The notes below the pieces were generated by a model, which saw only the letters and a list, made by a program, of their open reading frames with translations, had not been told where the DNA came from and made no database searches. Shown one piece after another: positions 3,511 through 47,203 of a DNA stretch of 55,016 nt. The stretch spans positions 1 through 55,016 of the IMG/VR virus record IMGVR_UViG_3300025671_000081. One strand, given 5' to 3'. This DNA is from a virus (taxonomy: Duplodnaviria > Caudoviricetes). A program made the translations under genes and the position numbers. Numbering within the stretch: the stretch's first letter is position 1; the number at the start of each line of letters is the position of its first letter.

Positions 3511-4193
3511 AAGTGAAACCGATGATTTTCAACCCTGACATGGCCTTGGCTTTACACGAAGACCGTAAGGGCCAGACGCGACGACCGGTTGATATACCTG
3601 ATGGCTGGGAATTAAAAAGCGCCGATCTATGCAAAATCACTGGCAAGCACCCCAAAAGTGGTAAGTGGGGTGTCTTGATTCGTCGCGAGACATTCGACGA
3701 AATCTACGAGCATGATCTTATTGCTGCCCCGGCTATGCCTGGAGACCTGATCTATGTGCGCGAAACCTTCCGGCTTTTTGATTCTTATGATGAGTGCGAC
3801 CACGCTGATTTCCCCTGCCCTTGTCCGGGGAATGGTGCGCCTATTTATTTTGCAAGCTGTCGTGATTCCGAGAGTAATTGGAAACCATCTATCCACATGC
3901 CGCGCTGGGCCAGCCGAACCACTCTGAAAGTGACCCGTGTCCGTGTTGAGCGCATTCAGGATATATCTGAAGACGATGCGATTGCCGAGGGATTCAAATA
4001 CACGGGGTGGAGACCGACTTACTCCGACCCAGATTCAGGTGGTGAATACAGCACAGCGAGCGACAAATTTGCAGATACGTGGATCTCAATCTACGGCGAC
4101 CATTGGGATAGCAACGGCTGGTGCTGGGTTATCGACTTTGAAGTTATCCACCAGAACGTAGACAGCTACCTTAAAAATCTGGAGGCAGCATGA
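3507..4193 (+). CDS. phage protein, ASCH/PUA-like family
   Basis: KPMIFN..M..A..RK.QTRR, PGD.IYVRET, WKPSIHMPRWASR..L.VT.VRVERIQDISE.DA.AEG. Confidence 0.8.
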   Translation: MKVKPMIFNPDMALALHEDRKGQTRRPVDIPDGWELKSADLCKITGKHPKSGKWGVLIRRETFDEIYEHDLIAAPAMPGDLIYVRETFRLFDSYDECDHADFPCPCPGNGAPIYFASCRDSESNWKPSIHMPRWASRTTLKVTRVRVERIQDISEDDAIAEGFKYTGWRPTYSDPDSGGEYSTASDKFADTWISIYGDHWDSNGWCWVIDFEVIHQNVDSYLKNLEAA

Positions 4194-4597
4194 GCCTTGA
4201 ACGATTAGCAATAGCCCAGGCATACCTAACGTCAGAGAAGAAGCGACTATTAAAGCTTCGAGAGGCAGAGCTAAGCAATTGCTACTTAATTGAATTCAGA
4301 GTTACCGGAAGATCAGATCACGCGGATTTTATAAATGACATTTCAGATCATGTCGGTGGAAGTCTCAGCCAGTTCTTTTGCTGCTCTGAGGTGGCGTATT
4401 TTTTATTCAAAGATGAAATGAATGACTTTGGCAGCGCAAACTACGAAGAACACATAGAAATGATTGGCTGTCCGCATTGCATACAAGCAAGAGAGATCAA
4501 GCACAAAACAAACGCCATATCTACAAAGCTGGGCCAGATAAGAGGCCAGATAACCATGGCCGGGAATAGACTAATCGGCGAGGTAATATCAGCATGA
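4190..4597 (+). CDS. hypothetical protein
   Basis: 135-aa coupled ORF with CPHC. Confidence 0.7.
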   Translation: MSLERLAIAQAYLTSEKKRLLKLREAELSNCYLIEFRVTGRSDHADFINDISDHVGGSLSQFFCCSEVAYFLFKDEMNDFGSANYEEHIEMIGCPHCIQAREIKHKTNAISTKLGQIRGQITMAGNRLIGEVISA

Positions 4598-4827
4598 CCT
4601 TTACTCCAAACTTCATAGGTGCAATGGGCTCCCTGCTGATACTTGGCATTGCCTTCTTTCTTGGCACCAATGGCCTGGCTTTCGCTGCACTGTCAATGCT
4701 GATTCTGGCTGTTGTTCTGGTTATCTGGCTCGTTATCAGTATCGGCATCTATTGCCTGGCACATAGACTGGCAACGCAGCTGGAAAGCGTTGCCCGTTTA
4801 GATCTGGGAGCGGACGATGAGAGCTGA
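4594..4827 (+). CDS. hypothetical membrane protein
   Basis: Two hydrophobic helices; overlaps neighbours. Confidence 0.65.
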   Translation: MTFTPNFIGAMGSLLILGIAFFLGTNGLAFAALSMLILAVVLVIWLVISIGIYCLAHRLATQLESVARLDLGADDES

Positions 4828-5917
4828 ATTTACTCCAGACAACCACTACGCTGGCCTGCTCGCTCAGGCTAAAGCGCTGTTTAGAATTACTCAGAGTCAG
4901 GAAGCGATCATTTCGACCCTGAGAAGCAAATTAACAGAGCTTGAATCACAGCTTGCCATGGTCGGCACGGCCGAGATTGAAGCGCAGCGCGCGGCCAATG
5001 AGCAACTGACCAATGAAGTGGAACGACTGACTGCGCATAACGCTAACCTACAGACCGCTGTAGATGCAGGGCTGCGTCAATCTTACATGCTGCGAGAATT
5101 CGCATCGAAAATCGGCATAAGTGACCGTGAAGACCCTCTTGAAACTCTGATAGGTGGCTGGACCCGGGCTGCAGAGGCCATGAGAAATTCACTCAATGAG
5201 CATAACCGAATGTGGAAAGAGGTTCTTCAGACCAGGCACGAGCACAGGCAGATGGCCGCACAAAATAAGCGTCTGATTAATTGCTTCACGACCTTAATGG
5301 GGCACAGTACGGGCGTTGCCGGGCTTCACTTAAATGGTGATGTGGCGCCATGGTCTGAGCTGACGGAAGGCGGAAGGTTTGAAGAGTGGCTTCTGCCCTT
5401 GTCAGAACCACGCGACCAGTCTATTGATGCGCTCGAAGCCCAGTGGCAAGCCGAAGCCATTCCCGGTTTTATCCGCGAAATGGGAGAGCGACTGCGCACC
5501 CAGGATAACCGTATTACTGCCGATCCTTTGTTCTGTGTGTTCCAAAAAAGAACCATTGTCGTGCCTGACGAATATGACCATGAATGTATTGAGTGGTTTT
5601 CAGGTGACGATCAGTGCACTGCTGAAGAAGAAGAAGCGGAGCGACTCGAAGAGTTACGAAGCGACATGGAAAGCGACTACTGGCATGAGGACACGATACC
5701 TCTCGATGGTAAAGAGTTTCGCCGTATCGCCGTTGCTGAGTATGACGAGTTCGTCACCGCATCATTTACCGAAGACGATGCTAACGACCATATCCGGATG
5801 AATGGCCACAACCTGAGAAAGCCATTCGTATTCGTTACCAGCCTGTACCGCACTCCGGAAATGATCGAGCTTCGCGAATGGCTGAAGGCTCAAGAAGCGG
5901 CTAAGGAACAACAATGA
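4817..5917 (+). CDS. Ead/Ea22-like modular early protein
   Basis: Coiled-coil N-terminus; C-terminal RTQDNRITADPLFCVFQKR...NGHNLRKPF..S.YR..EM..LR domain. Confidence 0.7.
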   Translation: MRAEFTPDNHYAGLLAQAKALFRITQSQEAIISTLRSKLTELESQLAMVGTAEIEAQRAANEQLTNEVERLTAHNANLQTAVDAGLRQSYMLREFASKIGISDREDPLETLIGGWTRAAEAMRNSLNEHNRMWKEVLQTRHEHRQMAAQNKRLINCFTTLMGHSTGVAGLHLNGDVAPWSELTEGGRFEEWLLPLSEPRDQSIDALEAQWQAEAIPGFIREMGERLRTQDNRITADPLFCVFQKRTIVVPDEYDHECIEWFSGDDQCTAEEEEAERLEELRSDMESDYWHEDTIPLDGKEFRRIAVAEYDEFVTASFTEDDANDHIRMNGHNLRKPFVFVTSLYRTPEMIELREWLKAQEAAKEQQ

Positions 5918-6090
5918 AGCAGCCAGAAACATTTATCGAAATGAAAGCTGAGTGCCCACACTGCGCGGCGCATATTGTGGTTTAAGCGGTAGATGAAACC
6001 GTAAACGGCCTTGAGGAAGTAGTTTGTGAAAACTGCAAAGAGCCGTTTTCTTACTGTTACCCTGGGAATATCTATGGGTTGGCGCAATAA
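5914..6090 (+). pseudogene. small zinc-ribbon gene with in-frame stop
   Basis: ATGA-coupled start; CPHC, TAA at 5983-5985, same frame continues through CENC to TAA 6088-6090 inside attC-1. Confidence 0.65.
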
Positions 6091-6141
6091 CCCAGATTTT
6101 AACGGGCGGCGAAGCCGTCCAATTTTAAATGTTTGTTATTT
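6085..6141 (-). repeat. attC-like site 1
   Basis: Minus strand TAACAAACATTTAAAA-TTGGACGGCTTCGCCGCCCG-TTAAAATCTGGGTTA. Confidence 0.88.
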
Positions 6142-6156
6142 TGATTAGGAGGCCAC

Positions 6157-6381
6157 ATGGCTCAATCACACGTGAAAGCAGGCGCGATTAAAGATTTTGT
6201 TAACTCAATGATCGCCGCGCTGGATGCTGGTTTTGTTGAGGGCAGCACACTAACACTGGCTCAGGTGCATGAAATCGCCCGGAACCACATCGAGGACACA
6301 CACGGCATAAAGACGAAGACCTTGCGTGAAGAATGGGGTGATGAGGTCGCGGAGCTGTGTGGCGCGCCTGAGTCAAAATAA
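6157..6381 (+). CDS. cassette A hypothetical protein
   Basis: AGGAGG RBS; stop codon in the R box of next site. Confidence 0.8.
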   Translation: MAQSHVKAGAIKDFVNSMIAALDAGFVEGSTLTLAQVHEIARNHIEDTHGIKTKTLREEWGDEVAELCGAPESK

Positions 6382-6432
6382 ATCAGAGCTTTGCAGCGAG
6401 CGAAGCGAGTCTGAAACAGTGAATTGTTATTT
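6376..6432 (-). repeat. attC-like site 2 (crossover triplet mutated)
   Basis: Minus strand TAACAATTCACTG..GACTCGCTTCGCTCGCTG..AGCTCTGATTTA; sister of site 9, which ends CTCTGGGTTA. Confidence 0.8.
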
Positions 6433-6446
6433 TTCTGGAGTTTGAG

Positions 6447-6653
6447 ATGGAAAGCATAATACAGATATTCAGGATGGATGATCTTAGCATTGAGACAAGA
6501 ATATCAATAATGAAAAAGCTCGGGACGGCAATCAATTATCAGTATGCTGCTAACTGTACAGAGGAACTGATAATCGAGCTTATTCTCGCACTGGCCCCTG
6601 AAAAAGAAGATGAGCTCCGTGCAGACGAGCATTACGGTCTTTACATGAAGTAA
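6447..6653 (+). CDS. cassette B hypothetical protein
   Basis: GGAG RBS; fills space between attC-2 and attC-3. Confidence 0.78.
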   Translation: MESIIQIFRMDDLSIETRISIMKKLGTAINYQYAANCTEELIIELILALAPEKEDELRADEHYGLYMK

Positions 6654-6705
6654 AAATAACCCGGCGCTTACGTGCCGAAGGTCAATTTAAAGCGCCTTGT
6701 TATTT
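6654..6705 (-). repeat. attC-like site 3
   Basis: Minus strand TAACAAGGCGCTTTAAATTGACCTTCGGCACGTAAGCGCCGGGTTA. Confidence 0.85.
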
Positions 6706-6898
6706 GGCGCGGGAGGATAAAGTAATTAAAACATACAAGATAAACCTGAAATTAGTCCGGAGTTTTTCTATCGGATTTAGTATTTTTTCGCCAACCCTTA
6801 ATAGGTTGTGCGTGGAGCTTCATTTCGGATGCTTTCACTTATGTTTTTGGAGCAAGGGAGACAAGCTTTTTGGCTTCAATAATTATTGGTGTGGCTAG
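6704..6898 (+). CDS. cassette C hypothetical protein (start codon probably lost)
   Basis: Open frame fills the cassette; GTA at 6722 sits where sister cassette D has ATG after the same GGAGGA. Confidence 0.55.
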   Translation: MAREDKVIKTYKINLKLVRSFSIGFSIFSPTLNRLCVELHFGCFHLCFWSKGDKLFGFNNYWCG

Positions 6899-6903
6899 AG
6901 ACC

Positions 6904-6957
6904 AAATAACCAAAAGCTAACGGGCGCGTAGCGTCCAATTTGAGCGCCTTGTTATTT
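6904..6957 (-). repeat. attC-like site 4
   Basis: Minus strand TAACAAGGCGCTCAAATTGGACGCTACGCGCCCGTTAGCTTTTGGTTA. Confidence 0.9.
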
Positions 6958-6973
6958 GGCGCGGGAGGAAAGA

Positions 6974-7165
6974 ATGAACCCATTTAAACGATTTTATTAC
7001 ATTGTTCGGATAGCTATCGCAATGACCAGACTAAAACGTTGGTCAGTGTCATGCAAAGACGAATTTAAGCGTGAACTATGCCGGACTTTATATCTTACGT
7101 CGTGTTTTACATACAACAGCGTTAAATACAGTTGGATGCCCAAGGCTACACCGGCGACAAAATAA
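6974..7165 (+). CDS. cassette D hypothetical protein
   Basis: GGAGGA RBS then ATG 6974; TAA stop in the R box. Confidence 0.75.
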   Translation: MNPFKRFYYIVRIAIAMTRLKRWSVSCKDEFKRELCRTLYLTSCFTYNSVKYSWMPKATPATK

Positions 7166-7214
7166 CGCCGGAATCAGGCGCGAGGCACGAGTCGCACTGA
7201 TCCGTGTGTTATTG
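7160..7214 (-). repeat. attC-like site 5 (anchor class)
   Basis: Minus strand TAACACACGGATCAGTGCGACTCGTGCCTCGCGCCTGATTCCGGCGTTA; body identical to site 10. Confidence 0.85.
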
Positions 7215-7271
7215 AATTAAACGAACTGCAGGAAGCAATAGCGCAGGCGCGTCAGGCGCTGGGAGATTGAT

Positions 7272-7478
7272 ATGGCAAAGAGTAAGCTAACGCCGCTGAA
7301 GAAGTTTGTAGAAGAGCGCTTCGGCGATACAGTACCTATGCGCACAGCGCAGCATTGGTGTCAGCACGGTCATGTTGCAGGCGCCCGTAAGATTAGGCGT
7401 CAGTGGTTTGTCGATCCTGATAAATTCGACAACACCACCGGCAACGAGCTGGCCGACAACATCCTGATGGCGTCCTAA
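7272..7478 (+). CDS. xis: excisionase (copy 1)
   Basis: 68-aa basic winged-helix-like protein (RT..HWC..G...GARKI.R.WFV) directly upstream of int. Confidence 0.85.
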   Translation: MAKSKLTPLKKFVEERFGDTVPMRTAQHWCQHGHVAGARKIRRQWFVDPDKFDNTTGNELADNILMAS

Positions 7479-7481
7479 TCC

Positions 7482-8609
7482 ATGGCACCGAGAGCACGCA
7501 AGCACAAGGGGTTGGAGCCGAATGTGTACCCGAACAAATCAGGCGGGCACACTTACTATCGCTACAAACACCCGCTCACCGGGGTGATGTACCCGCTTGG
7601 CAAGAACAAGGCGGAGGCCAATACGGCCGCCCGGATTCTGAACGCGAAGCTGCTGCAGGATGACGCCTGCATCATCGATAAAATCATGGGCACCGTCGGT
7701 ATCAGCATGGGCGCGCTTGTTGAGCGGTTCCGCGATGACCGATTGCCGGAAATGGGCCTGAAGGTCTCGACCCTAAAACTCATGGGATACCGCCTCAATC
7801 GTATTGTGTCTGACCTGGGCGACCGCGTTATCACGGAAATGACCACGAAAGACTGCGCGACCTGGCTGGATGATAACTTTGAATCAGATCCATACGTTAA
7901 ACACCGCGGTACTCTGATCGAGCTATTCCGGTATGCCGAGAACAAAGGGCTCCGTAACGGCAACGACAACCCAGCGGAAGGCACTTACCCTAACCGTAAG
8001 AAGAAGAAAAAAGCCCGCAAGCGCATGACGGTCGAGCAGTACCTTGCCATTCACGCCGCTGCGCCAGATTGGATGAAAATCGCAATGGAACTGGCCTTGA
8101 TTACACTACAGGGTCGTTCTGAGCTGATCAGAATGCGTTACGACGCTATCAAAGACGGCTACCTGTACGTTGTCCGTCAGAAAGTCGAGAGCCACGAACA
8201 CGCACGCCTCAGAATCAAAGTAACGCCAGAGATTGAGAGTATCGTTTCCCGATCCAGAGACGGTCTGGCCAGTCCCTACATCGTGCACCGTCGCCCGCAG
8301 CGGGTGAAAGAGAACAAAGACACCGATCACTGGACCCAGATTGCGCCTAATGAGTTCACCAAGCAGTTCCGGCTTATCCGCGACAGTCTGCCGGAGTTTA
8401 TCGGCATACCCAAAGAAGAACGCGGAGGTATTCACGAGGTCCGCGCATTAGGGTCGTGGCTGTATGAGCAAGCGGGATATGAGCGCGATTACGTTCAGCA
8501 TCTAATGGCTCACTCTGATGAGAAAATGACCGAATACTATCAGAGCGAGCATGAAGAAAAGTGGATCGACGTTAAAGCTGAACTCAGCCTGGCGTCAGTG
8601 TTTAAGTAA
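7482..8609 (+). CDS. int: lambda-type tyrosine integrase (copy 1)
   Basis: N-terminal arm-binding domain (YYRYKHPLTG..LG), catalytic GRSE, HEVR, AH, MTEYY. Confidence 0.95.
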   Translation: MAPRARKHKGLEPNVYPNKSGGHTYYRYKHPLTGVMYPLGKNKAEANTAARILNAKLLQDDACIIDKIMGTVGISMGALVERFRDDRLPEMGLKVSTLKLMGYRLNRIVSDLGDRVITEMTTKDCATWLDDNFESDPYVKHRGTLIELFRYAENKGLRNGNDNPAEGTYPNRKKKKKARKRMTVEQYLAIHAAAPDWMKIAMELALITLQGRSELIRMRYDAIKDGYLYVVRQKVESHEHARLRIKVTPEIESIVSRSRDGLASPYIVHRRPQRVKENKDTDHWTQIAPNEFTKQFRLIRDSLPEFIGIPKEERGGIHEVRALGSWLYEQAGYERDYVQHLMAHSDEKMTEYYQSEHEEKWIDVKAELSLASVFK

Positions 8610-8667
8610 CCCTAGTTTTAATGGGCGCGAGTAGTACGAGCGTCCACCATTTAAATGTTTGTTATTG
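8604..8667 (-). repeat. attC-like site 6
   Basis: Minus strand TAACAAACATTTAAATGGTGGACGCTCG..CGCGCCCATTAAAACTAGGGTTA; overlaps int stop codon. Confidence 0.85.
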
Positions 8668-8700
8668 CTCTATGAGCAGAAAATAACGGAGATACACGTC

Positions 8701-8853
8701 ATGAAGTGGCTAAGAGAACGAAAAAAAAGACAGCAAGAGCAGCTTGAATTGCTAAGAAGGATTGCTAAAAGTTTAAACGAAATAGAACAAAGTATTGATC
8801 GCAATAGCCGATATGGAAATGCCATTAAGGTAGTGCGGGCATCGAGATATTAG
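8701..8853 (+). CDS. cassette F small basic protein
   Basis: GGAG RBS, ATG 8701, 50 aa. Confidence 0.7.
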   Translation: MKWLRERKKRQQEQLELLRRIAKSLNEIEQSIDRNSRYGNAIKVVRASRY

Positions 8854-8858
8854 AGTAG

Positions 8859-8907
8859 CAATAACCACGCTATTCAGCGGTTTATCCGCTGCAATGCTTT
8901 GTTATGT
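8859..8907 (-). repeat. attC-like site 7 (very short)
   Basis: Minus strand TAACAAAGCATTGCAGCGGATAAACCGCTGAATAGCGTGGTTA; one extra base in left L arm. Confidence 0.82.
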
Positions 8908-8929
8908 GTGAATTACGGGAGATATTGTT

Positions 8930-9169
8930 ATGAGCCATCACGGGCATGGTTATAGAGTTTACCCTGATGATATGTCAGAACATACTCATGAAGAGTGGTC
9001 AAAAGCTGATAGCTGGATAAACGGTCTAGAGTTTAGAAAGGACTTTAATGAGGCTTTAGCTTTGGCAAAACTTGGAGCCGTTAATTGCCAATTTCCTTTC
9101 ATTGTAATGGAGATACCAATTGGCGGCAAAAGACAGAGATTTTGTGATTGCTGGGTGATAGAACCCTAA
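8930..9169 (+). CDS. cassette G hypothetical protein
   Basis: GGGAGA RBS; fills cassette. Confidence 0.78.
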   Translation: MSHHGHGYRVYPDDMSEHTHEEWSKADSWINGLEFRKDFNEALALAKLGAVNCQFPFIVMEIPIGGKRQRFCDCWVIEP

Positions 9170-9173
9170 TGAC

Positions 9174-9231
9174 ACATAACCCGGCGTTTAACTGTGAACG
9201 CCAGTGAATCATTTATAACGCTTTGTTATTC
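9174..9231 (-). repeat. attC-like site 8
   Basis: Near identical to sites 11 and 13 (+ strand TAACCCGGCGTTTAACTGTGAACGCCAGTGAATCATTTA.AACGC.TTGTTA). Confidence 0.9.
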
Positions 9232-9247
9232 GTTGGAGTTGAGTTAA

Positions 9248-9751
9248 ATGAGTGGATTGTTTGGAGAGCCAGTAGAGCGATCGCCGCACAAAAGCGTTGA
9301 GTGGTACACGCCGTCGTGGGTATTCGATGCTCTTGCAATCGACTTTGATCTGGATCCGTCTTCTCCACACGATATGGAAACGGCGGTACCAGCAAAGAAG
9401 AAGTTCACCATCTTTGATGATGGTCTTAAACAGGAGTGGTTCGGACGAGTGTGGCTGAATCCTCCTTATGGAAAAGATACACCGTTCTGGATCCGCAGAA
9501 TGATCGAACACGGTAATGGTATTGCACTGGTATTCAGCCGCACTGATGCGGCTTGGTGTCAGGAAGCAATGGCGGCATGTACTGCAATGCTTTTTGTTAG
9601 TGGACGGATCCAGTTCACACCAGGCAAAGAGAATCAGCACAAAAAGAGCCGTTGCGGTGCTGGTACCGTGCTCTTTGCTTTCGGAAAAGAGAGCGCCTGT
9701 GCGTTGAAGCGTATGAGCGATCGCGGAGTTTATTTAGAACGGAACGAATAA
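9248..9751 (+). CDS. cassette H phage DNA N6-adenine methyltransferase (Dam-type)
   Basis: EWYTP, FDLDP, DGLKQEW, VWLNPPY, FSRTD..W, GRIQF motifs. Confidence 0.9.
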   Translation: MSGLFGEPVERSPHKSVEWYTPSWVFDALAIDFDLDPSSPHDMETAVPAKKKFTIFDDGLKQEWFGRVWLNPPYGKDTPFWIRRMIEHGNGIALVFSRTDAAWCQEAMAACTAMLFVSGRIQFTPGKENQHKKSRCGAGTVLFAFGKESACALKRMSDRGVYLERNE

Positions 9752-9807
9752 CCCAGAGCTTTGCTGTGCGAGTGCAGCGAGCGTCTGTCAAAAGTGAATT
9801 GTTATTC
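9746..9807 (-). repeat. attC-like site 9
   Basis: Minus strand TAACAATTCACTTTTGACAGACGCTCGCTGCACTCGCACAGCAAAGCTCTGGGTTA. Confidence 0.85.
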
Positions 9808-9815
9808 TTACAGAG

Positions 9816-10016
9816 GTGATTATGAGCAGAGAGATGCTAACGAATCGTTTGGAAAAAATTGCCGGTAGTAACGTGATTATGTCAAACGACAAAGAGAAAG
9901 CGGCGCTGTGTAAGTGTGTCAACTATCTGGCCACGCAGCTACAGATTCTTGCGAATGACTTGGATGAAAGTCCTGCAAATGTTTTTAAGCTGGCGTCCGA
10001 GATACTGGAAGAATAA
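9816..10016 (+). CDS. cassette I hypothetical protein
   Basis: GAGGTG RBS (start may be ATG 9822); stop in R box. Confidence 0.75.
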   Translation: MIMSREMLTNRLEKIAGSNVIMSNDKEKAALCKCVNYLATQLQILANDLDESPANVFKLASEILEE

Positions 10017-10065
10017 CGCCGGAATCAGGCGCGAGGCACGAGTCGCACTGATCCGTGTGTTATTG
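10011..10065 (-). repeat. attC-like site 10 (anchor class)
   Basis: Body identical to site 5. Confidence 0.85.
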
Positions 10066-10122
10066 AATTAAACGAACTGCAGGAAGCAATACAGCAAGCG
10101 CGTCAGGCGCTGGGAGATTGAT

Positions 10123-10329
10123 ATGGCAAAGAAGAAGTTAACGCCGTTGAAGAAATTCGTAAAAGACAAGTTCGGCGACGACGTACCTATGCGAACCGCG
10201 CAACACTGGTGCCAGAATGGGCACTTGGCTGGAGCCCGAAAAGTAGGCCGGAAATGGTTTGTCGATGCAGAGCAGTTCGATAAAACTACCGGCAATGAAC
10301 TGGCCGACAGCATCCTGATGGCGTCTTAA
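10123..10329 (+). CDS. xis: excisionase (copy 2)
   Basis: 15 of 68 residues differ from copy 1 (hand count). Confidence 0.85.
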   Translation: MAKKKLTPLKKFVKDKFGDDVPMRTAQHWCQNGHLAGARKVGRKWFVDAEQFDKTTGNELADSILMAS

Positions 10330-10332
10330 TTC

Positions 10333-11460
10333 ATGGCACCAAGAGCGCGCAAGCATACAGGTCTGGAAGCGAATGTGTACCCGAACAAGTCCGGCGGGCA
10401 CACTTACTATCGCTACAAACACCCCCTTACCGGGGTGATGCACCCGCTTGGCAAGAACAAAGCCGAGGCCAACACGGCAGCCAGAATTCTGAACGCGAAG
10501 CTTTTGCAGGATGATGCGTGCGTTGTCGATAGAATCATGGGCACTGTTGGTATCAGCATGGCCGCTCTGGTTGAGCGGTTCCGCGACGACCGATTGCCGG
10601 AAATGAACCTCAAGCCGTCCACCCTCAAGCTAATGGGTTACCGACTGAATCGCATTGTGACCGACCTGGGCGACCGCGTTATCACGGAAATGACCACGAA
10701 AGACTGTGCGACCTGGCTGGATGATAACTTTGAATCAGATCCATACGTTAAGCACCGCGGCACTCTGATCGAGCTATTCCGGTATGCCGAGAACAAAGGG
10801 CTCCGTAACGGCAACGACAACCCAGCGGAAGGCACCTACCCTAACCGGAAGAAGAAGAAGAAAGCCCGTAAGCGCATGACGGTCGAGCAGTACCTTGCCA
10901 TTCACGCCGCTGCGCCAGATTGGATGAAAATCGCAATGGAACTGGCCTTGATTACACTACAGGGTCGTTCTGAGCTGATCAGAATGCGTTACGACGCTAT
11001 CAAAGACGGCTACCTGTACGTTGTCCGTCAGAAAGTCGAGAGCCACGAACACGCACGCCTCAGAATCAAAGTAACGCCAGAGATTGAGAGTATCGTTTCC
11101 CGATCCAGAGACGGTCTGGCCAGTCCCTACATCGTGCACCGTCGCCCGCAGCGGGTGAAAGAGAACAAAGACACCGATCACTGGACCCAGATTGCGCCTA
11201 ATGAGTTCACCAAGCAGTTTCGGCTTATCCGCGACAGACTGCCGGAGTTTATCGGCATACCCAAAGAGGAACGCGGCGGTATCCACGAAGTCCGTGCACT
11301 AGGGTCGTGGCTGTATGAGCAAGCGGGATATGAGCGTGATTACGTTCAGCACCTGATGGCTCACTCTGATGAGAAGATGACCGAATACTATCAGAGCGAG
11401 CATGAAGAAAAGTGGATCGACGTTAAAGCTGAACTCAGCCTGGCGTCGGTGTTTAAGTAA
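10333..11460 (+). CDS. int: lambda-type tyrosine integrase (copy 2)
   Basis: 11 of 375 residues differ from copy 1 (hand count); catalytic residues intact. Confidence 0.95.
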   Translation: MAPRARKHTGLEANVYPNKSGGHTYYRYKHPLTGVMHPLGKNKAEANTAARILNAKLLQDDACVVDRIMGTVGISMAALVERFRDDRLPEMNLKPSTLKLMGYRLNRIVTDLGDRVITEMTTKDCATWLDDNFESDPYVKHRGTLIELFRYAENKGLRNGNDNPAEGTYPNRKKKKKARKRMTVEQYLAIHAAAPDWMKIAMELALITLQGRSELIRMRYDAIKDGYLYVVRQKVESHEHARLRIKVTPEIESIVSRSRDGLASPYIVHRRPQRVKENKDTDHWTQIAPNEFTKQFRLIRDRLPEFIGIPKEERGGIHEVRALGSWLYEQAGYERDYVQHLMAHSDEKMTEYYQSEHEEKWIDVKAELSLASVFK

Positions 11461-11512
11461 CCCGGCGTTTAACTGTGAACGCCAGTGAATCATTTAGAAC
11501 GCATTGTTATGC
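11455..11512 (-). repeat. attC-like site 11
   Basis: Minus strand TAAC-AATGC-GTT(C)TAA...TTAAAC-GCCGG-GTTA, with the canonical extra C in L''. Confidence 0.9.
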
Positions 11513-11529
11513 GTTGGGAGGATACCGAA

Positions 11530-11853
11530 GTGACAGACCAAGAAAAAATAGTTTCAGCAATCAAGCATATACCTACGGATGAGATAGCTGCGCTGCCGTA
11601 CTTCAAGAACCGTGGGAAGAATTTCATAGCCCGTGGATTGGCGAATGATAAGACCGGGGAGCGTGAGCGCGCATTCAGTGACGTCATAAAGGAATTTCAC
11701 GAGGACGGCAACAGTCTCTGCCTTATTGTCGGTGAAGATGAAGCCGAATTGCGCGGGGCTTTTACCTTGTTTCAGTGGCTAACAACAAATGTCGGAAGCG
11801 TCGTTCTTGATAGGGCGTTACGGTCTACAGGAAAGAAGGTTGTTGACGCATAA
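11530..11853 (+). CDS. cassette J hypothetical protein
   Basis: GGGAGGA RBS then GTG 11530; stop in R box. Confidence 0.78.
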   Translation: MTDQEKIVSAIKHIPTDEIAALPYFKNRGKNFIARGLANDKTGERERAFSDVIKEFHEDGNSLCLIVGEDEAELRGAFTLFQWLTTNVGSVVLDRALRSTGKKVVDA

Positions 11854-11898
11854 CGCCGGAATCACGGGCCGCAGGTCCCGTGAAACCGTGTGTTATTG
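11848..11898 (-). repeat. attC-like site 12 (anchor class)
   Basis: Minus strand TAACACACGGTTTCACGGGACCTGCGGCCCGTGATTCCGGCGTTA. Confidence 0.85.
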
Positions 11899-11918
11899 AT
11901 GCTTTGGCGACTACTGTA

Positions 11919-12193
11919 TATTGCCAATGTATTGCCAATTATTTGCCAATGCAAACAGCAGGCACAAAAAAGACGCTTATAAGCGCCTGATTTGTAAGGG
12001 ATTTTTGGTAGGACTACCCAGATTCGAACTGGGGACCTCTACCATGTCAAGGTAGCCTTCCAAATCCGCTAAGCGTCTGTTTTATAAGGGATTTACCCCT
12101 TAAAACCGTGCGCAATGAGCGCAATAAACGCGAACCGCGCAACCTTTTAAAATCAATGACTTAGGTTTTGCGCAACCACTGGATATTGCCAAT
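11919..12193. other. attP region: arm-type repeats (TA)TTGCCAAT at 11919, 11930, 11942 and 12184; IHF-consensus site 12151-12163
   Basis: Repeats flank the tRNA-derived core; AATCAATGACTTA matches WATCAANNNNTTR. Confidence 0.8.
12006..12055 (-). other. attP core = 3' part of tRNA-Val(GAC), not a full tRNA
   Basis: Minus strand CTACC-TTGACAT-GGTAG anticodon arm, CCCAG-TTCGAAT-CTGGG T arm, ending CCTACCA; D arm and 5' acceptor strand absent. Confidence 0.9.
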
Positions 12194-12200
12194 AGGAATT

Positions 12201-12764
12201 ATGATGCCCAGACGAAAACAAAAACCAAAAACCCGCAAGAAGCCCATGCGCAGAACGGCACGTCAAGTGCAACGTCATGAAGCGTCGCGGCTCATAAAAG
12301 ACCTGGTCGCCGTGTACGTCTTCACCGGTAGCGGCTCAAAGCCTCGAGTATTCAACCGCACAACGTTCATAGAGGTTCCGGTTACCGATGAAATTGACTC
12401 CGCCCTAAAGAGTCACCCGTACCGATGGCGTATCAGCACTGCCCTTCTGCTTCGCGAAAAGAATGGCAAGCGGAAACTTATTAGTGAAGAGGTGTCTGCT
12501 CGCGATAAAAATGGAATCGCTCGAATCGAGTACGGAAACCTAGCGCCACAGGTTGTCGATAGTCACGTCGACCTCGTCTCAAGCTACTCCAACCAAGACT
12601 TAATAGTAACAGTGGGCTGGGTTGCTGATCCAAGCGGCAAAGAGCTCTCGCCAGAAGATGAAATGCGTCTCTATGAAGCAGCGAAGGCTTATGAAAACTT
12701 CATCGCTGCTTGGGAACTTCCTGCTGCTGAGGCTGCCGGCCAGTTAGTGGAAAAGGTAGCGTGA
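12201..12764 (+). CDS. hypothetical phage protein
   Basis: AGGA RBS before ATG 12201; long ORF. Confidence 0.7.
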   Translation: MMPRRKQKPKTRKKPMRRTARQVQRHEASRLIKDLVAVYVFTGSGSKPRVFNRTTFIEVPVTDEIDSALKSHPYRWRISTALLLREKNGKRKLISEEVSARDKNGIARIEYGNLAPQVVDSHVDLVSSYSNQDLIVTVGWVADPSGKELSPEDEMRLYEAAKAYENFIAAWELPAAEAAGQLVEKVA

Positions 12765-12796
12765 CGAATCCTGAAGAGGATGAAAAGCACAGGTAC

Positions 12797-12854
12797 ACAT
12801 AACCCGGCGTTTAACTGTGAACGCCAGTGAATCATTTATAACGCATTGTTATGC
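12797..12854 (-). repeat. attC-like site 13
   Basis: Near identical to sites 8 and 11. Confidence 0.9.
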
Positions 12855-12871
12855 GTTGGGAGGATATTTAA

Positions 12872-13075
12872 GTGACAGATGAAAATTCATTCGTGATTCG
12901 TCTTTTACACGAGAAAAACGAGTTGCATTGCAGAATGACACTACTAAATCGTTTCAATCATTCTGATAAATTTTTAGAGCTGAGCGAAGAAGAGCAAGTG
13001 CTACTACTGGAACAACACAGAGCAATGCAGAAATATTACGGGATACTCAACAAGCGCTGCGCCCTGTACGCATAA
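12872..13075 (+). CDS. cassette K small helical phage protein (crAss001_48-like)
   Basis: RL..EK.EL..R...L..F...DKF..L..EEQ.LL..Q..AM..Y..IL..R pattern. Confidence 0.75.
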   Translation: MTDENSFVIRLLHEKNELHCRMTLLNRFNHSDKFLELSEEEQVLLLEQHRAMQKYYGILNKRCALYA

Positions 13076-13127
13076 CGCCGGAGTCGCGCGTCGAGGTACG
13101 AGATCGCCGCGCACCCGTGTGTTATTT
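13070..13127 (-). repeat. attC-like site 14 (anchor class)
   Basis: Minus strand TAACACACGGGTGCGCGGCGATCTCGTACCTCGACGCGCGACTCCGGCGTTA. Confidence 0.82.
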
Positions 13128-13415
13128 CGGTATGACCATAACCTCTATATCCGGAGCTGCAACCCGGGCACGCTCAGGGAACCGACCTTCTTCAGGTTCG
13201 CATATCAGAACAATGGCCGGCATCCGCCCTGTCGATCGAGCGTAGTAAAGAGCCTGGCCTACAGCCTCCGCCCATTTATGGCACCAGTCGAACTCAACCG
13301 CGTGAGTAGGTGTGAGGCAGTCGACCCGGGTACGGTCTTCGAGCACGTATTCGGTTTTACCGCCCATATGTGGGCAATACGCGCCAACGTAGTCAGCTTC
13401 CATTGGTCTCGTCAT
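13122..13415 (-). CDS. small PD-(D/E)XK-like fold protein
   Basis: RVDCLT..HAVEFD..KWAEAVGQALYY motif; stop codon inside R'' of site 14. Confidence 0.65.
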   Translation of the reverse strand: MTRPMEADYVGAYCPHMGGKTEYVLEDRTRVDCLTPTHAVEFDWCHKWAEAVGQALYYARSTGRMPAIVLICEPEEGRFPERARVAAPDIEVMVIPK

Positions 13416-13578
13416 TTGCTGCAGATTGATTCATTGCAGCAATGTAGCCTAAACGGAATGACATCGCATCTTTAATGACAGGGTGATCGGGTTCGAGTTC
13501 GGCGATAGAAAACAGGGCCTTCTTACCGCAAGGCTTCTGAGTAATGATGAGACTTTCGGTGATTGCTATTACTTCCAT
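13393..13578 (-). CDS. hypothetical protein
   Basis: GGAAGAG upstream of ATG 13578; overlaps next gene. Confidence 0.5.
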   Translation of the reverse strand: MEVIAITESLIITQKPCGKKALFSIAELEPDHPVIKDAMSFRLGYIAAMNQSAANDETNGS

Positions 13579-13712
13579 GAGGTGCTCTTCCTTATTGATA
13601 AACAAAATATTAATGCATCCAATTGCAAGCGTCATCGGTAACAGAAGGTCAATTTATCCAATGCAGACAAAATGGCATACTTTGTCTAAATGGGAAAATT
13701 GAGGTTAAAGGT

Positions 13713-14159
13713 ATGCATGGTGTGGCCGGTCTGGGCAGTCGACTTCGAGAAGCGCGCAGGGAGGCGGGGCTATCAGCTGATTGGATGGTGCGCTTTCTTA
13801 ATGGGTACTTAGTATCAGCAGGTATGAAGCCCGTAGGCATACAGACCTATTACAGCTGGGAGCGAATAGGCACTCCCAGAGAAAGACCGGGGAAGTCCTA
13901 CCCTCACCCGCTGATTTATAAGCTGGTGCTGATCCCGCTGGGTGTGACTGGATACTGGCTGTTCAATGGGGATATGGGCGGCAAGATAGTAAAGTACAGA
14001 AAGGATCTTCCTCAGCTTGAGAAGATCAATTACGGCATCGAACAGAAATCAGGAGTAACGCTGCCTGATCGCTTGAGGATGGAATTTAATAGGGTTGAGC
14101 CGCTAATGAACAACGGCCAGCGTAGAGGGTTATTGGAAATGCTAAGGGCAACCAGATGA
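13713..14159 (+). CDS. XRE-like HTH DNA-binding protein
   Basis: LGSRLREARREAGLS..., YSWE.IG, LGVT.YWLFNG; GAGG RBS. Confidence 0.7.
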   Translation: MHGVAGLGSRLREARREAGLSADWMVRFLNGYLVSAGMKPVGIQTYYSWERIGTPRERPGKSYPHPLIYKLVLIPLGVTGYWLFNGDMGGKIVKYRKDLPQLEKINYGIEQKSGVTLPDRLRMEFNRVEPLMNNGQRRGLLEMLRATR

Positions 14160-14398
14160 TAGGCAGCTGGACATACGAAGAGGCGGCAACGCTGATACTG
14201 ACATGCTATGCACTCAGCTTCGTCATCGTAATTATGTCTGACAGTGTACCAACCAAGTGGCGAACGTGGACCACGGTGCACTGTGTTGCGCTGGCGGTAC
14301 CCATCGCAACACTGGCCACCTCAATTCTGGTGGCGATACCCGGCCTTATGATTCTTGGCCTGGTAATCGCAGCCACGTCCCGGGTTAAGCGTCGATAG
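14156..14398 (+). CDS. small membrane protein
   Basis: 2-3 hydrophobic helices; coupled to HTH gene. Confidence 0.6.
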   Translation: MIGSWTYEEAATLILTCYALSFVIVIMSDSVPTKWRTWTTVHCVALAVPIATLATSILVAIPGLMILGLVIAATSRVKRR

Positions 14399-17300
14399 CT
14401 TTCAGCTTCGGCGATACACGCTCAATCAAGTGATTCCTGCGCAGCTTCAGCAAGTCGATCTGACGTCGCTTTTCTTCTGCGCTGAGACTTCCGTTTTTCT
14501 CAATGGCCTTAATCCGGTTGCGGATCTCCTGTAGCCGTCGGTTCACCTGATTCATTAACTTGCGCATACCAAGCAGGTCGCGGTTTTCCCTCAAGGTGTC
14601 GGCGTACTCTTCCATGTCGCCCTCTTCTCTGTACTTCCTCATATCCGCATAGAGGCGGTCAGCCTTACGCAGTGAGTCATAGAAAAGCTCTGCGTCTTTT
14701 GTGTAAGACGGCCGAGAAGCATCACGATAGAAGCGTTTGATCGGCTGATACTCTGTCAGGAAAACAGACGGTTTTTCTGTATCGCTGAACTGACGAACAG
14801 CTACATCAGGAATGGCCGACGCCCATGCGCCAACCTGTCCGAGGTAGCCACCGATTAAGAAGTCCATCTGAACCGGTGACAGCGCGTAGTTTGAATCTTC
14901 GCCGAACACGCCCGTGGTCACCTTGCTCAGCATCTTGGCGACGCCGGTTGTGCCCTCATTGACCCGATTACTTTTGCTCAGTCGGGACTGCCCCATGGTT
15001 TCAATCTGACGCCCGGTGAACGAGTCCTTGTTCGCGTAGACATCCAGCGAAGGCTGAAACATCTGAGGCACAGCACTGAATGCAAACGTACCTGTCAGCA
15101 TGTGCCACATACGCTCACGGAACAGTTTGCCGGTAGCCTCGTCGTTCATGCCTTGCTCAAGTAATCGCTCAGTTACCGTTGCGATGGCGCCAACCTCAAA
15201 CGGTTTAGGGATGGTAATGACGTGATCCGTTTCCGGAATACGGAACCACCAGTAGGAATCCTTCAGCCAGTCTGGGGCTTTACGGTATTCCTCATCGTCC
15301 TGGTTATGTGCGAACAGAGTCATAGTGGCAACCGAAAGCGCGCCAACCACAGCAGAGAATCTGGCTGCCGCCTTTTTCTCTTCAATGCTGGTTTCGACAT
15401 TACCAACCCCAAGCATCTGCGCCACTACCTTCGTCGATGGCTTCACGCCAGAGCGATACAGCTTATCCAGGCCCTGCAAGCGAGCATTCAGGAATGGTAC
15501 AACGTCGATCAGAAAGCGAACCGCAGGCCACGCGCCATGCGCAGAGAAGTCCATCAGGTCGCGAGCCTGAAACGCTGCGTACATGGTCCCCTTTCCCGCA
15601 TCCTCAGCCTGCTTGAATGCAGCCGCACGATTCACGTTCTCAAGGCTGTTATTCACATCCATCCATCTATCCCAGCCAGCCTGTAAAGGCTTCAGCCCCA
15701 GAGACAGAAGCTGTTTAGGGTCCTTGATAACCTTTGCCCGGCGCATCTGGCCATCGATCTGATACCGGATAGAGTCAGCATCCTCGCCATAAACGTGACC
15801 GAAGCTGAACGCACCGCCAGACGCCATCAGCCGCGCTCGTTCATATCCGTGACGATCAAGCAGACCGAACGATTTGAGACCCTGCGCAATGTTGCTGGCC
15901 GCGTTCTTGCTCATGTCGGTAACCGCCACTGCACTCATAGAGTCCCGCAGAAGGTTGGCGACAACGAACTGAGGCGTACTGGTGGTCAGGTTGGTGAAAG
16001 TTCTTTTAAACCAGCGCATAGCCGACATGGCATAGCCGTTCATGCCGGTGTGGTTCAGACTGGTCAGCGACGAATAGACCATAGGGTCAGAAATGTCGTA
16101 CCACTCTTTCACGCCATTACGCAGTATGAAGGTGCTTTGCTTTTTGTCCCGAGCTGCCTCGACAGTTTTCTCTGCCGCGCCTAACTCCACCGCGTTATCA
16201 ATGCCCTGCTTCGCTGCCATGTTCTTCATGCTGGCATCAACCAGGTGGTGTAAGTTCATCAATGTGTTTTGCAGGAGGTCATTCAGGTTCTGAGTGCCAC
16301 CCTTCAGCTTCTTATAAGCCTGCTGGCGAGAAAGCCCGCCCATAACCCTTGGGCCTGTAGTGTCGTCGTTGTCTTCGTCCAGTCGGTAAAAGGGAACGTA
16401 AAACTCGTTCGCCCACATTTCCCGGTTTTCGCTGGTGATAATTCCTGACTCTTCAGCAATCGCCAGAACGTCGTCCCGGTACTGCTGGAACTCTTTGAAC
16501 ACCTTTTCATACAGAACGTTACGGTTACCGCCGTTTTTCAATTCGCCGCGGTTAAGCCCTTTCAGCGCCTGAATGTCTTCCGGAGTGAACAGATTTTCAC
16601 GACCTTCGGCCATCAGCTTTTCGCCGCGGTTACCGGCGATCCACCCCATGAAGCGCTCAATCTCAGCGGACGAGCCCAGTTTATTCAGGGTATAAATCAG
16701 GCCGTTAGTGTCTTTCTTCACATCGACGATACCGTCTTTGTTCATAAAGATACGGCCTGCGTTCATCATCGCAGACACAGCACCAGAGGCGGCATTGCTC
16801 ATTTTGGCGCGAGCCCAGGCAGAACGAGTGATGTTTTCTTCACTGGTGATATTGCCGTCAAGCAACTTCTTATCCAGCTCCATCAATCCAGCATAGCGAT
16901 CAACCAGACCCTGACGGACCTTTAAGCGCCAGCCGTCCATAACGCCGCGCACTTTTTCGGCGGCAGTTTCTACCGGGCCTTTCGGCCCGATTTTAGAGAG
17001 GGCTGATTTCTCGGCATCGTTAAGGCTGGAGTCTTCCGCAAGGTCGTCGGATAAGCGGGCGAGAGTTCCACCATCCTGACCAGACGAACCATTCTCACGA
17101 AGGTGACGACGCCCTTTTTCAATCAGCGCCAGAGTGTCTGTATCCGTCCAGTCGATATCAGGATTGAATTTGCGGATCAGGTCGCGCAGGGCAGCAATAG
17201 CACGCTGTACCAGCCCCATCTTTTTACCTTTCTCGGCAAGGTGGGCAATGTACTCCAGAACAGCAATACGACGCTCATCTGGGTTGTCATAGTCAAATGC

Positions 17301-42133: not shown

Positions 42134-42230
42134 CGTCCCGATACTCCTGCTCTCGTTTCTGCGCCTCAGACGCCCGGAAAAACCCGAGCGCTGCGCTGAT
42201 CAACTTTAGTAACGTGGAGAAGCCGCGCAC
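41967..42230 (-). CDS. putative inner-membrane spanin (Rz-like)
   Basis: N-terminal hydrophobic helix; overlapped by lipoprotein gene. Confidence 0.5.
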   Translation of the reverse strand: MRGFSTLLKLISAALGFFRASEAQKREQEYRDDVKEIHGDPVGSWNMRFLRGRVRDDEGGDGSDLSGRADNGTGGVHSADSSTSGRD

Positions 42231-42571
42231 TATTTCAGCGCCTTGTTAATGCCGCGACTGTCAATTTTGAACGGGTCGTTCGGCTTCTGCTTCGCAAACA
42301 GGAAGTTAAGCGCCAGGTAATCGATCACCTTATACAGCTTACCGATAATGCGGTTATCACTCGGAGTAGGCGTTAGCGACACGATCAACGACGCAACAGG
42401 ACTCAACAGGAACAATACCGCCAGCGCCTTTTCTACCGGATTAAGAACAGACCAGAGGCCGACCACCATGGCCGCCGCGTCCGTATCAATAACAGCAGCC
42501 TCAGCCGCAAATACCAGAGCCGGAGCAAAGAGCAGCCCAAGCGTTAAAAACACTGTAGTAATAAATTTCAT
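42230..42571 (-). CDS. holin-like membrane protein
   Basis: TM helices; AS.I..LTPTPSDN...KLYK.ID.LALN motif. Confidence 0.6.
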   Translation of the reverse strand: MKFITTVFLTLGLLFAPALVFAAEAAVIDTDAAAMVVGLWSVLNPVEKALAVLFLLSPVASLIVSLTPTPSDNRIIGKLYKVIDYLALNFLFAKQKPNDPFKIDSRGINKALK

Positions 42572-46582: not shown

Positions 46583-47140
46583 TCACGGCTCAAAACTCAG
46601 AACTTCTGAAACAAGAATTGACTGTTCAACTGCTCTGTCGTCAGCTAGGAAGCTGTACTCATAACAGTGTACTGCCAGAGTCTCTTTCCACAACCTCTTA
46701 GACGCCTCCAGCGACTGGGTCGGGGTTTCAGATAAAACTCTATCGACGTACATTGCATGCTTGTCTGCAAAGTTTCCATGCCCATCCTGATTCCCTATTG
46801 CTCGAAACTGGTTCGCGCATTCTATGAGCATGTCTTTTGCGCCAGACGCAGCACCCCGCAACCGCTCCACCTGCGCGGCTAGTTCGTTAGCCTTCTGGTT
46901 AAACAGCCATTCGGCACGATCCCAGGCGGCGTTTACTATCTTCTGCTTGTCCGCCGGTAGTCCATCCAAACCCCAGCTAGCGTTAAAATCTTCCCGCGTC
47001 TGTGTGTACGGTACTTTTTCTAGTCGTTCGACTTTTGCGGCTAGTTCGCTGCTTTCGCGGGTTAACTCTTCTATTGTCGCTTCATGCTTAACACAAAGCT
47101 CTGACAGTGTTTTTTGGCTTACTAATGTGTATTTATTCAT
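46583..47140 (-). CDS. hypothetical protein
   Basis: 185-aa ORF, internal ELAAxVERL repeat. Confidence 0.7.
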   Translation of the reverse strand: MNKYTLVSQKTLSELCVKHEATIEELTRESSELAAKVERLEKVPYTQTREDFNASWGLDGLPADKQKIVNAAWDRAEWLFNQKANELAAQVERLRGAASGAKDMLIECANQFRAIGNQDGHGNFADKHAMYVDRVLSETPTQSLEASKRLWKETLAVHCYEYSFLADDRAVEQSILVSEVLSFEP

Positions 47141-47154
47141 ACCCTACCCTCTGT

Positions 47155-47203
47155 TAATAACACACGCCAGCACGAGACAAAGCTCGTGTGTGCGGCGTTA
47201 TTG
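47155..47203 (+). repeat. solitary attC-like site 15 (anchor class)
   Basis: AATAACACACGCCAGCACGAGACAAAGCTCGTGTGTGCGGCGTTATT; GTTA overlaps stop of minus-strand ORF. Confidence 0.72.

Follow-up and report, generated by a model that had tools for sequence, protein, structure and literature searches.

Two or more attC sites lying close together with no integrase make up a CALIN (cluster of attC sites lacking an integrase), and the attI site of integrons is a non-hairpin site located by intI, specific to its integrase and recombined as double-stranded DNA. The present analysis concerns a complete, metagenome-derived virus record of 55,016 bases (IMG/VR record IMGVR_UViG_3300025671_000081; Duplodnaviria, Caudoviricetes), referred to here as the window, in which 14 attC-like hairpin sites (S1 to S14) lie within 7 kb without intI, which makes them a CALIN; no complete integron, with intI beside an array, was found in the window. 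Attention is given to four of these sites (S5, S10, S12 and S14), here called anchors, which lie at the ends of the four arrays next to core phage DNA and probably serve as places where cassettes are docked.

CALINs have been described before in phage genomes by Qi et al. 2023 (PMC9892861). According to parts of that paper, their cargo includes orphan DNA methyltransferases, five of six tested phage attCs recombined with attI1 under IntI1, and one array adjoins a hairpin with two inverted GTTRRRY motifs. The arrays of the window resemble those CALINs in being attC arrays without intI in a phage genome. They differ from them, as far as the main-text parts of the paper describe them, in having a conserved, backbone-fixed anchor class at the proximal end of every run, in cassettes that are all inverted, and in the occurrence of empty and filled anchors in sister phages; the same main-text parts hold no mention of anchors or inverted cassettes. 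In a literature search, no conserved anchor class, inverted phage cassettes or cassette-bounded integration module was found described, a result on which supplementary details of array boundaries may bear.

T4-type phages harbor a further comparable system, the promoter-early stem-loop (PeSL) cassettes, reportedly treated by Comeau et al. 2014 (PMC4122927). As described in parts of the study by Arbiol et al. 2010 (PMC2839356), these cassettes resemble the ones discussed here in that small ORFans each lie behind a conserved stem-loop and move among related phages within hyperplastic regions, no dedicated recombinase having been identified. Unlike the sites of the window, PeSLs hold a strong sigma-70 promoter and are thought, in the same parts of that study, to recombine by homology (PMC2839356), whereas the present sites are promoter-free, match attC and form joints that share TAAC only. 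Finally, parts of a preprint by Loot et al. 2023 (10.1101/2022.09.11.507474) report that an integron integrase acting in trans inserts and excises cassettes at non-integron sites named attG; these are described there as far from att sites in both sequence and structure, while the anchors are attC-like and conserved.

The anchors are set apart from the other sites of the window by their sequence. TAACGCCGGA occurs exactly four times in the window, always on the + strand (7163, 10014, 11851 and 13073), and CCGTGTGTTA likewise (7202, 10053, 11886 and 13115). The joint pattern TAACGCCGGA...CCGTGTGTTA gave four forward matches, no reverse match and no control match, and the ten remaining sites (S1-S4, S6-S9, S11 and S13) all have a TTGTTA end. 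These counts bear out the original prediction, made from the sequence of the window alone, that the four anchors form a class distinct from the other sites and that each closes its run. The pattern TAAC-N-TTGTTA was matched 21 times in the window versus 1.5 expected, so the site cluster is not a product of chance. Of the 14 sites, a hairpin detector recovered 13, all within 7 kb, and it made eight detections in the remaining 48 kb; on five whole-window shuffles it made 3 to 12. The sites and their neighbors are collected in Table 1.

Table 1. Hairpin sites of the window and the features beside them (R1, profile of chromosomal attC sites; E, E-value; int, integrase; xis, excisionase-like open reading frame).
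Feature	Position	Strand	Description
S1	6088..6138	-	internal, type A; first site of array 1 on +; R1 10.7 bits
S2	6379..6429	-	internal, type B; left box degenerate, TAAA for TAAC; R1 11.8 bits
S3	6657..6702	-	internal, type C; R1 16.5 bits, E 0.046; same body in the MAG prophage
S4	6907..6954	-	internal, type C-like; best attC match of the window, R1 28.6 bits, E 9e-5
S5	7163..7211	-	anchor by xis-int copy 1; R1 28.4 bits
Excisionase-like ORF (7272-7478); integrase copy 1, lambda-type (7482-8609)	7272..8609	+
S6	8607..8664	-	internal, type A; joined to int copy 1 at the proposed point of non-allelic crossover
S7	8862..8904	-	internal, single type; R1 19.3 bits, E 0.011
S8	9177..9228	-	internal, type D; followed by the Dam methyltransferase cassette (9248-9751)
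S9	9749..9804	-	internal, type B
S10	10014..10062	-	anchor identical to S5, by xis-int copy 2; R1 28.2 bits
Excisionase-like ORF and integrase copy 2	10123..11460	+
S11	11458..11509	-	internal, type D
S12	11851..11895	-	anchor by attP; R1 25.1 bits, E 5e-4
attP region	11896..12200	.	repeated ATTGCCAAT-like arm motifs
tRNA-Val(GAC), 3' part	about 12003-12068	-	in the attP region; weak Rfam tRNA match
S13	12800..12851	-	internal, type D
S14	13073..13124	-	anchor by convergent core genes; R1 weak, 7.6 bits
Second-subclass anchor-like site	47158..47200	+	R1 15.2 bits on +; TAACGCCGCACAC...GCTGGCGTGTGTTA read on the minus strand

All sites fold to hairpins closed by TAAC/GTTA, the terminal boxes TAAC...GTTA being present in 13 of the 14 (S2 is TAAA), and folding energies calculated with DNA parameters ranged from -10.9 to -13.4 kcal/mol for the anchors and from -3.8 to -8.1 kcal/mol for the other sites. 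A folded attC strand has R and L stems, an unpaired spacer and extrahelical bases; in the anchors, a G-T pair is conserved and a T is bulged out on the 3' arm of the + strand. Covariation in the aligned anchors yielded no compensatory count, as only the invariant outer pairs were kept and the inner arms fell out of register. Many anchors and some internal sites have an apical motif, CGAG-N4-6-CGAG (CGAGGCACGAG, CGAGGTACGAG), as at 7181-7193, 13093-13105 and, within S6, 8629-8643; it is also seen in some chromosomal attCs (L175, L181; L-numbers denote loci from viral contigs, metagenomes and host genomes), and the mosaic anchors described below change partner inside it. Other sites show C-GNA-G triloops on the + strand (GCGAAGC in S1 and S2). 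In type C and D sites, the 3' arm may instead pair with bases after TTGTTAT (GCGCC/GGCGC, AACGCA/TGCGTT), which gives an alternative small hairpin directly 5' of the ribosome-binding site (6690-6720, 6942-6972, 11497-11517 and 12839-12859). This second hairpin was rejected as a general feature, the mean stem length being 3.5 versus 3.0 in mismatched controls.

The exact anchor pattern was found in one genome of a species collection, an Oceanospirillaceae bin (metagenome-assembled genome, MAG), which carries a prophage of ~58 kb with ~82-97% identity to the window, in blocks. The identity of the sites was assessed with a profile, R1, built from 37 chromosomal attC sites adjoining intI in eight genomes of the host family; its RNAalifold structure had 3 base pairs only, so that it is mostly a sequence profile, and it was searched without filters. 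These chromosomal sites read TAACAA...GGAC...CGCC...GCGTTA, with TAACAA in 36 and CGTTA in all 37. R1 matched all 14 phage sites, always on the minus strand (E-values of at most 5e-4 for four sites, below 0.05 for six in all, and 0.17-4.5 for the rest), and in the orientation of the open reading frames (ORFs) it gave one match only, S7, with 6.3 bits. On 34 other loci, 54 matches were obtained at E<=0.5; 40 of them coincided with sites, and all 40 lay on the strand opposite to the cassette ORFs. The internal sites have GGGTTA or TGGTTA in place of the chromosomal CGTTA, and the anchors hold the canonical GGCGTTA, but with TAACAC, present in 0/37 chromosomal attCs, in place of TAACAA. In addition, the central 17 nt of S1 (GGGCGGCGAAGCCGTCC) are also found in a chromosomal attC of the bin that hosts the MAG prophage. 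By these sequence features, the 14 sites can be classed as integron-type attC hairpins whose top strand is the phage minus strand. They share with the chromosomal arrays of the host family the architecture given above, the 17-nt center of S1 and an inferred crossover at G|TT of the R' box.

The two kinds of array differ in orientation. The chromosomal arrays adjoin intI and have ORFs co-oriented with attC in 34 of 41 intervals (2 anti-oriented, 5 ambiguous), whereas none of the 13 intervals of the window is co-oriented (10 anti-oriented, 3 ambiguous; Fisher p = 1.6e-8). Since R1 matches lie on the minus strand and no interval is co-oriented, the phage cassettes run against their attC sites, the coding strand of the phage being the bottom strand of attC, which in integrons is the recombinogenic one; the canonical cassette layout, with an ORF co-oriented with and upstream of attC, was not found in the arrays of the window. 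Read in the attC orientation, each run starts at its anchor, which adjoins core DNA, with the cassettes read toward the anchor, and S14 is the proximal end of the whole array. The first idea, that an anchor at the + end contradicts integron geometry, was dropped after the sites had been oriented with the chromosomal attCs.

The surroundings of the anchors indicate that they belong to the phage backbone. S5 and S10 lie in front of xis-int and S12 lies in front of attP, and the DNA that follows S14 has 92.6% identity to the MAG prophage from 13081 onward; comparison with this prophage confirmed that the anchors adjoin core DNA and not cargo. A caveat concerns S12 as an array end, as S13 follows 905 nt later, with attP and one ORF in between. 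The window and the MAG prophage have identical xis-side (49 nt) and attP-side (45 nt) anchors, with flanks of ~90-94% identity, and every ORF upstream of these two anchors differs between the two phages. At the third locus, that of S14, the prophage has a homologous hairpin with the same center and other arms. The S5 body was also found at the same locus in L164, and the 45-nt body of S12 is identical in the MAG prophage, L149/L165, L155 and L163, with different upstream ORFs; five to six different left flanks were counted at each of the attP-side and xis-side anchors. The residency of the anchors in phage genomes, as originally predicted, is thereby established from sequence comparison, the same body standing at the same locus in relatives in which all upstream cassettes are different. 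The prediction also called for a look at relatives with an empty anchor at the same loci; an empty anchor was found in another phage family, in a sister of a filled phage. In L006, the anchor is empty and the stop codon of a core ORF is the TAA of the anchor; its sister L008 is filled, with one cassette exactly at the TAA|C of the anchor, and L005 has other cassettes there.

At the far side of array 1, upstream of S1, a zinc-ribbon-like small ORF (5916-6086) is cut short in the MAG prophage (magrc 56688-56753), where a site starts directly after ...AACATTTAT. Because of this truncation, the distal array end lies at different, non-site positions in the two phages.

The position of anchors within arrays was followed in a wider set of loci. 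Scans with the anchor pattern gave 13 viral-contig stretches and 26 metagenome stretches, 24 of the latter being true hairpins, and the pooled anchors comprised 48 sites, 25 distinct bodies and 39 distinct contexts. An additional search of viral contigs with ATAACCCGGCG...TTGTTAT returned at least 114 stretches; 86 of its loci were an unrelated conserved 47-nt sequence and were excluded before every count. Of the 35 distinct anchor contexts with 300 nt or more of downstream sequence, 3 had a same-strand site in the next 1.3 kb, versus a site upstream in 24 of the 36 contexts with room upstream (Fisher p = 4e-7). The three downstream cases are host DNA beyond a prophage end, S13 across attP, and a second anchor in L148. 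The expectation that anchors do not occur at random internal positions thus held almost throughout, save for the one internal anchor of L148. In loci found via internal sites, most runs end in an anchor or in a related stable hairpin ending in GTGTTA; a GTGTTA end is also seen on other types of site, which can lie inside arrays. Some terminal-type sites were degenerate or halved, with the left half only at ~6490-6520 of L050 and a left box TAAAAAC at ~570-630 of L108 and in array 4 of the prophage, which suggests decay after fixation.

The points of exchange were located from natural joints. On the + strand, the G|TT of the attC R' box reads TAA|C, and joints at this position were seen for at least six ORFs as well as in the pair of empty and filled anchors. 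Growth of arrays at the G|TT of the anchor, as proposed in the original prediction, agrees with these insertion and deletion junctions at TAA|C; joints are also seen at the opposite box. It had also been proposed that removal of the cassettes in silico regenerates one site with perfectly complementary boxes (CAATAAC...GTTATTG). This holds for array 1 and fails for the others, where deletion gives AAGTAAC/GTTATTG in arrays 2 and 3 (5/7 complementary) and ACATAAC/GTTATTT in array 4 (6/7); the natural empty anchor of L006 reads AAATAAC/GTTATTG (6/7).

Cassettes were found beside different partners in different phages. Behind ORF50 stands S7 in the window and an anchor in L163. The Dam cassette is followed by S9 in the window, and in L170 its 3' end (342 nt, 100% identical) joins an anchor directly. 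The S4 body and ORF 6974-7165 are common to the window and L085, with homology bounded by TAAC on both sides, and what follows this ORF differs, being an anchor in the window and a type-A body in L085. Similarly, the integrase gene is followed by three different site bodies among the phages compared, and one ORF abuts three different anchors (L151, L154 and L160). The transferred cassettes were 100% identical (259 and 342 nt) between phages whose xis-int differ by 7-17%, and cassette DNA has a GC content of 44.4%, with 51-54% in core DNA. These comparisons locate the junctions and document the transfer of cassettes between phages; joints with no more than TAAC in common cannot arise by homology-based exchange. 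The nested series from L163 through L170 to the window, together with the repeated adjacency of cassettes and anchors, fits growth beside the anchor.

The unit of anchor, xis and int is present twice in the window (7160-8614 and 10011-11465), each copy of 1455 nt, in a gap-free alignment with 71-100% identity per 100 nt that includes a 300-nt block at 100%. Both units are bounded by TAAC on each side in the manner of a cassette. The two lambda-type integrases have an arm-binding domain (Pfam matches to Arm-DNA-bind_1 and Phage_integrase), and the stop codon of integrase copy 1 falls inside the TAAC of S6. The MAG prophage, with its single xis-int, and L163 have one copy of the unit. The segment 8607-8865, from S6 onward, is 100% identical to L163, where S6 follows a core gene and not int. 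The duplication looks like the product of one TAA|C exchange in which the site after int of a first phage recombined with the site that opens the xis-side run of a second; exchange between non-allelic sites is proposed because S6 follows, in L163, the core gene upstream of the first run.

The explanation that we favor overall, with moderate confidence, is that these are arrays of attC hairpins built on backbone anchors and served by a host integrase acting in trans. Each run starts, in the attC orientation, at an anchor, a very stable hairpin with the canonical R' sequence GGCGTTA and an unusual R'' flank, TAACAC, and the anchors are part of the backbone by xis-int, by attP and by the next core block. 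Site-specific exchange at the G|TT of R' (TAA|C on +) would bring cassettes in and remove them, which would explain why each cassette ends in a TAA stop codon of its own. The catalyst is most likely an integron integrase supplied by the host in trans and acting on folded single strands, and new cassettes would land mainly beside the anchor, which would place the anchor in the role of attI. The duplicated anchor, xis and int would have arisen when two related phages underwent one such exchange at non-allelic sites. We infer which enzyme acts, that its substrate is single-stranded and that anchors are preferred. The docking-site reading of the anchors appears largely supported by the comparative evidence.

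The claim that the anchors functionally replace attI stands in part. Like attI, an anchor is the first site of its array, lies by non-cassette DNA and is the place where new cassettes appear. Unlike attI, it is an imperfect palindrome of 45-52 nt that folds as an attC-type hairpin and not as an attI-type site, adjoins no integron integrase gene, is present three to four times per genome and is common to unrelated phages. As for the enzyme, integron integrases above the curated cut-off were present in 44 of the 61 host-family genomes sampled and in none of the 14 control genomes, and attC matches were obtained in 57 of the 61.

Several observations weigh against this explanation. No integron integrase was found in the phage, either with the NCBIfam model on its integrases or in a PF00589 scan of the whole window, which matched the two lambda-type integrases only, and the only intI-like ORF of the MAG host bin is truncated (181 aa). 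The phage sites score 7.6-34.6 bits with R1 (7.6-28.6 in the window), below the 43-60 bits of chromosomal attCs, for which reason they are a divergent subclass; R1 itself has 3 base pairs only, and S14 reaches only 7.6 bits. One anchor, L148:977, is internal, and L085 ends in a TTGTTA site with no anchor within the available 565 nt; moreover, the loci were gathered by anchor search, so that they test whether anchors are last better than whether the last site is an anchor. A series of deletions would give the same nested pattern as growth. Joints at the opposite box (G|TTA on +) are not produced by canonical bottom-strand exchange; the same untranslated region and ORF follow different bodies (ORF77 in the MAG prophage versus L008; L154 versus L160), and one right flank is found behind different anchor bodies (L154 versus L158). 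An unrelated family (L005/L006/L008) shares the S14 body at 100% identity, with both flanks different. Anchor bodies are also mosaic, switching within the central CGAGGNACGAG motif (L020, L147, L148 and L163), and the homologues of the S14 locus in relatives are mosaics. Finally, the phage encodes a full homologous-recombination kit (RecT, RecE, NinB, Rap and SSB). Opposite-box joints and mosaics could result from exchange on the other strand of near-symmetrical hairpins or from RecET-type exchange.

In the MAG host bin, the 181-aa ORF (L185 2941-3486) matches model positions 1-131 and 273-314 only and has attCs beside it (4146-6221), and a separate canonical attC array is found on another contig (L184 600-3000).

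The most serious alternative, which we nevertheless regard as unlikely, is that the sites are true attCs but the anchors have no docking role, being attCs attached to backbone segments in arrays that are ordinary CALINs with exchange at any site. It would account for the fact that every site, anchor or not, remains joined to the DNA to its right on the + strand, for the occurrence of anchor, xis and int as a twofold unit itself bounded by TAA|C on both sides, and for joints that also involve internal sites, such as int with its three bodies and ORF 6974-7165 with the type-A body of L085. It is at odds with the finding of the same cassette directly by three different anchors and of ORF77 by anchors in two phage families, as well as with nested arrays that differ on the anchor side (L163 and L170 versus the window). 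It also leaves aside that the anchors are a sequence class of their own (TAACAC), with far more stable hairpins, recurring in unrelated phages.

An improbable alternative is that the hairpins are regulatory, acting as a terminator or attenuator with a leader, that they were shuffled by RecET/NinB/Rap and slippage, and that their resemblance to attC arose by convergence. At 45-60 nt, the site bodies offer sufficient length for annealing-type recombination. The recombination proteins named above are present, the anchors are mosaics with central switches, junctions occur at both boxes, and type C and D sites can form the second hairpin just 5' of the ribosome-binding site; the exchange of PeSL cassettes, too, was mapped to the stem-loop, according to parts of PMC2839356. 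However, the profile of chromosomal attCs matches all 14 sites on one strand, the central 17 nt of S1 recur in a host chromosomal attC, many joints of ORF and body share TAAC only, which is beyond homologous recombination, and the second hairpin is not general (3.5 versus 3.0). Promoter-like sites in 5000-14500 numbered 4 versus 9.5 expected, with none at a hairpin, and a terminator scan left the anchor stems unflagged save for a 5-pair sub-stem at S14, although it flagged S1 and S7 on the + strand; the tails TGTGTTATT are U-rich, yet fall under the rule of that scan. Rfam gave no match to the sites.

Marginally less probable still is that the duplicated anchor, xis and int, and hence two of the four arrays, are an assembly chimera of two co-occurring strains: the record is metagenome-derived, the 300-nt stretch at 100% between the copies could mislead an assembler, and the relatives (MAG prophage and L163) have a single copy, but the joint between integrase copy 1 and S6 shares only TAACCC with alternative joints, too short for a mis-join, 17 sequencing-run rows each contain half or more of the words sampled from 5900-13400 (no proof of the joint), and the observation on anchors is independent of the duplication. 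Readings as Xer/dif-like or IS200/IS605-like elements were set aside, as no similarity to dif or IS200/IS605 sites was seen and no Xer or IS200/IS605-type transposase was found among the ~37 window ORFs scanned or in the PF00589 whole-window scan.

Outside the arrays, the second-subclass anchor-like site listed in Table 1 lies in the minus-strand early region; behind it come a conserved leader, ACAGAGGGTAGGGTATG, and an ORF that varies (47140..46583). The MAG prophage is without this site and has two other ORFs and a different hairpin there, and the subclass was also found in L007, L021-L024, L027 and L148. A weak match to the attC profile (42207-42251; 13.8 bits, E 0.19) shares its strand with the local genes and has the canonical cassette orientation, unlike the arrays.

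The phage is temperate and of lambdoid style, and it encodes RecT, RecE, SSB, Rap/NinG and NinB together with a DNA methyltransferase, a helicase loader, a replication initiator and an internal virion protein. The MAG prophage sits in tRNA-Val(GAC), with a full tRNA-Val(gac) at the prophage end, and the attachment core corresponds to window 12003-12056, where the ends of the MAG prophage overlap. A near-identity search of 5900-13500 against deposited phage genomes gave no match, and an integrase-based search of viral contigs for relatives gave a single distant locus (39% identity). In an order-level sample of 401 genomes, real anchors were found in the prophage-bearing bin only; three other matches, none of them hairpins, compare with seven control matches. 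For 5900-13400, the 18 best-matching sequencing-run rows are labelled freshwater metagenomes, and the relatives found are marine records.

Phage attC arrays have been reported before, and this locus offers a testable layout of how they may be tied to the phage genome and may grow, with a backbone hairpin class at the proximal end, empty and filled states in sister phages, and a host family in which integron integrases are common. It is conceivable, and we put it forward tentatively, that temperate phages of integron-rich marine bacteria carry docking hairpins flanking their integration module, at which the host integrase trades phage-specific, inverted ORFan cassettes among unrelated phages, and that the unit of anchor, xis and int is itself a cassette, so that the integration module would be movable. 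The layout suggests, in addition, a pool of cassettes inverted relative to attC, for which standard integron annotation would read the wrong strand. If the host enzyme acts on these sites, small ORFans beside phage integration modules would gain a defined insertion mechanism, and integrons would be a route of gene exchange among phages as well as among bacteria. The arrangement as a whole suggests that phages borrow the integron machinery of their hosts to swap small genes.

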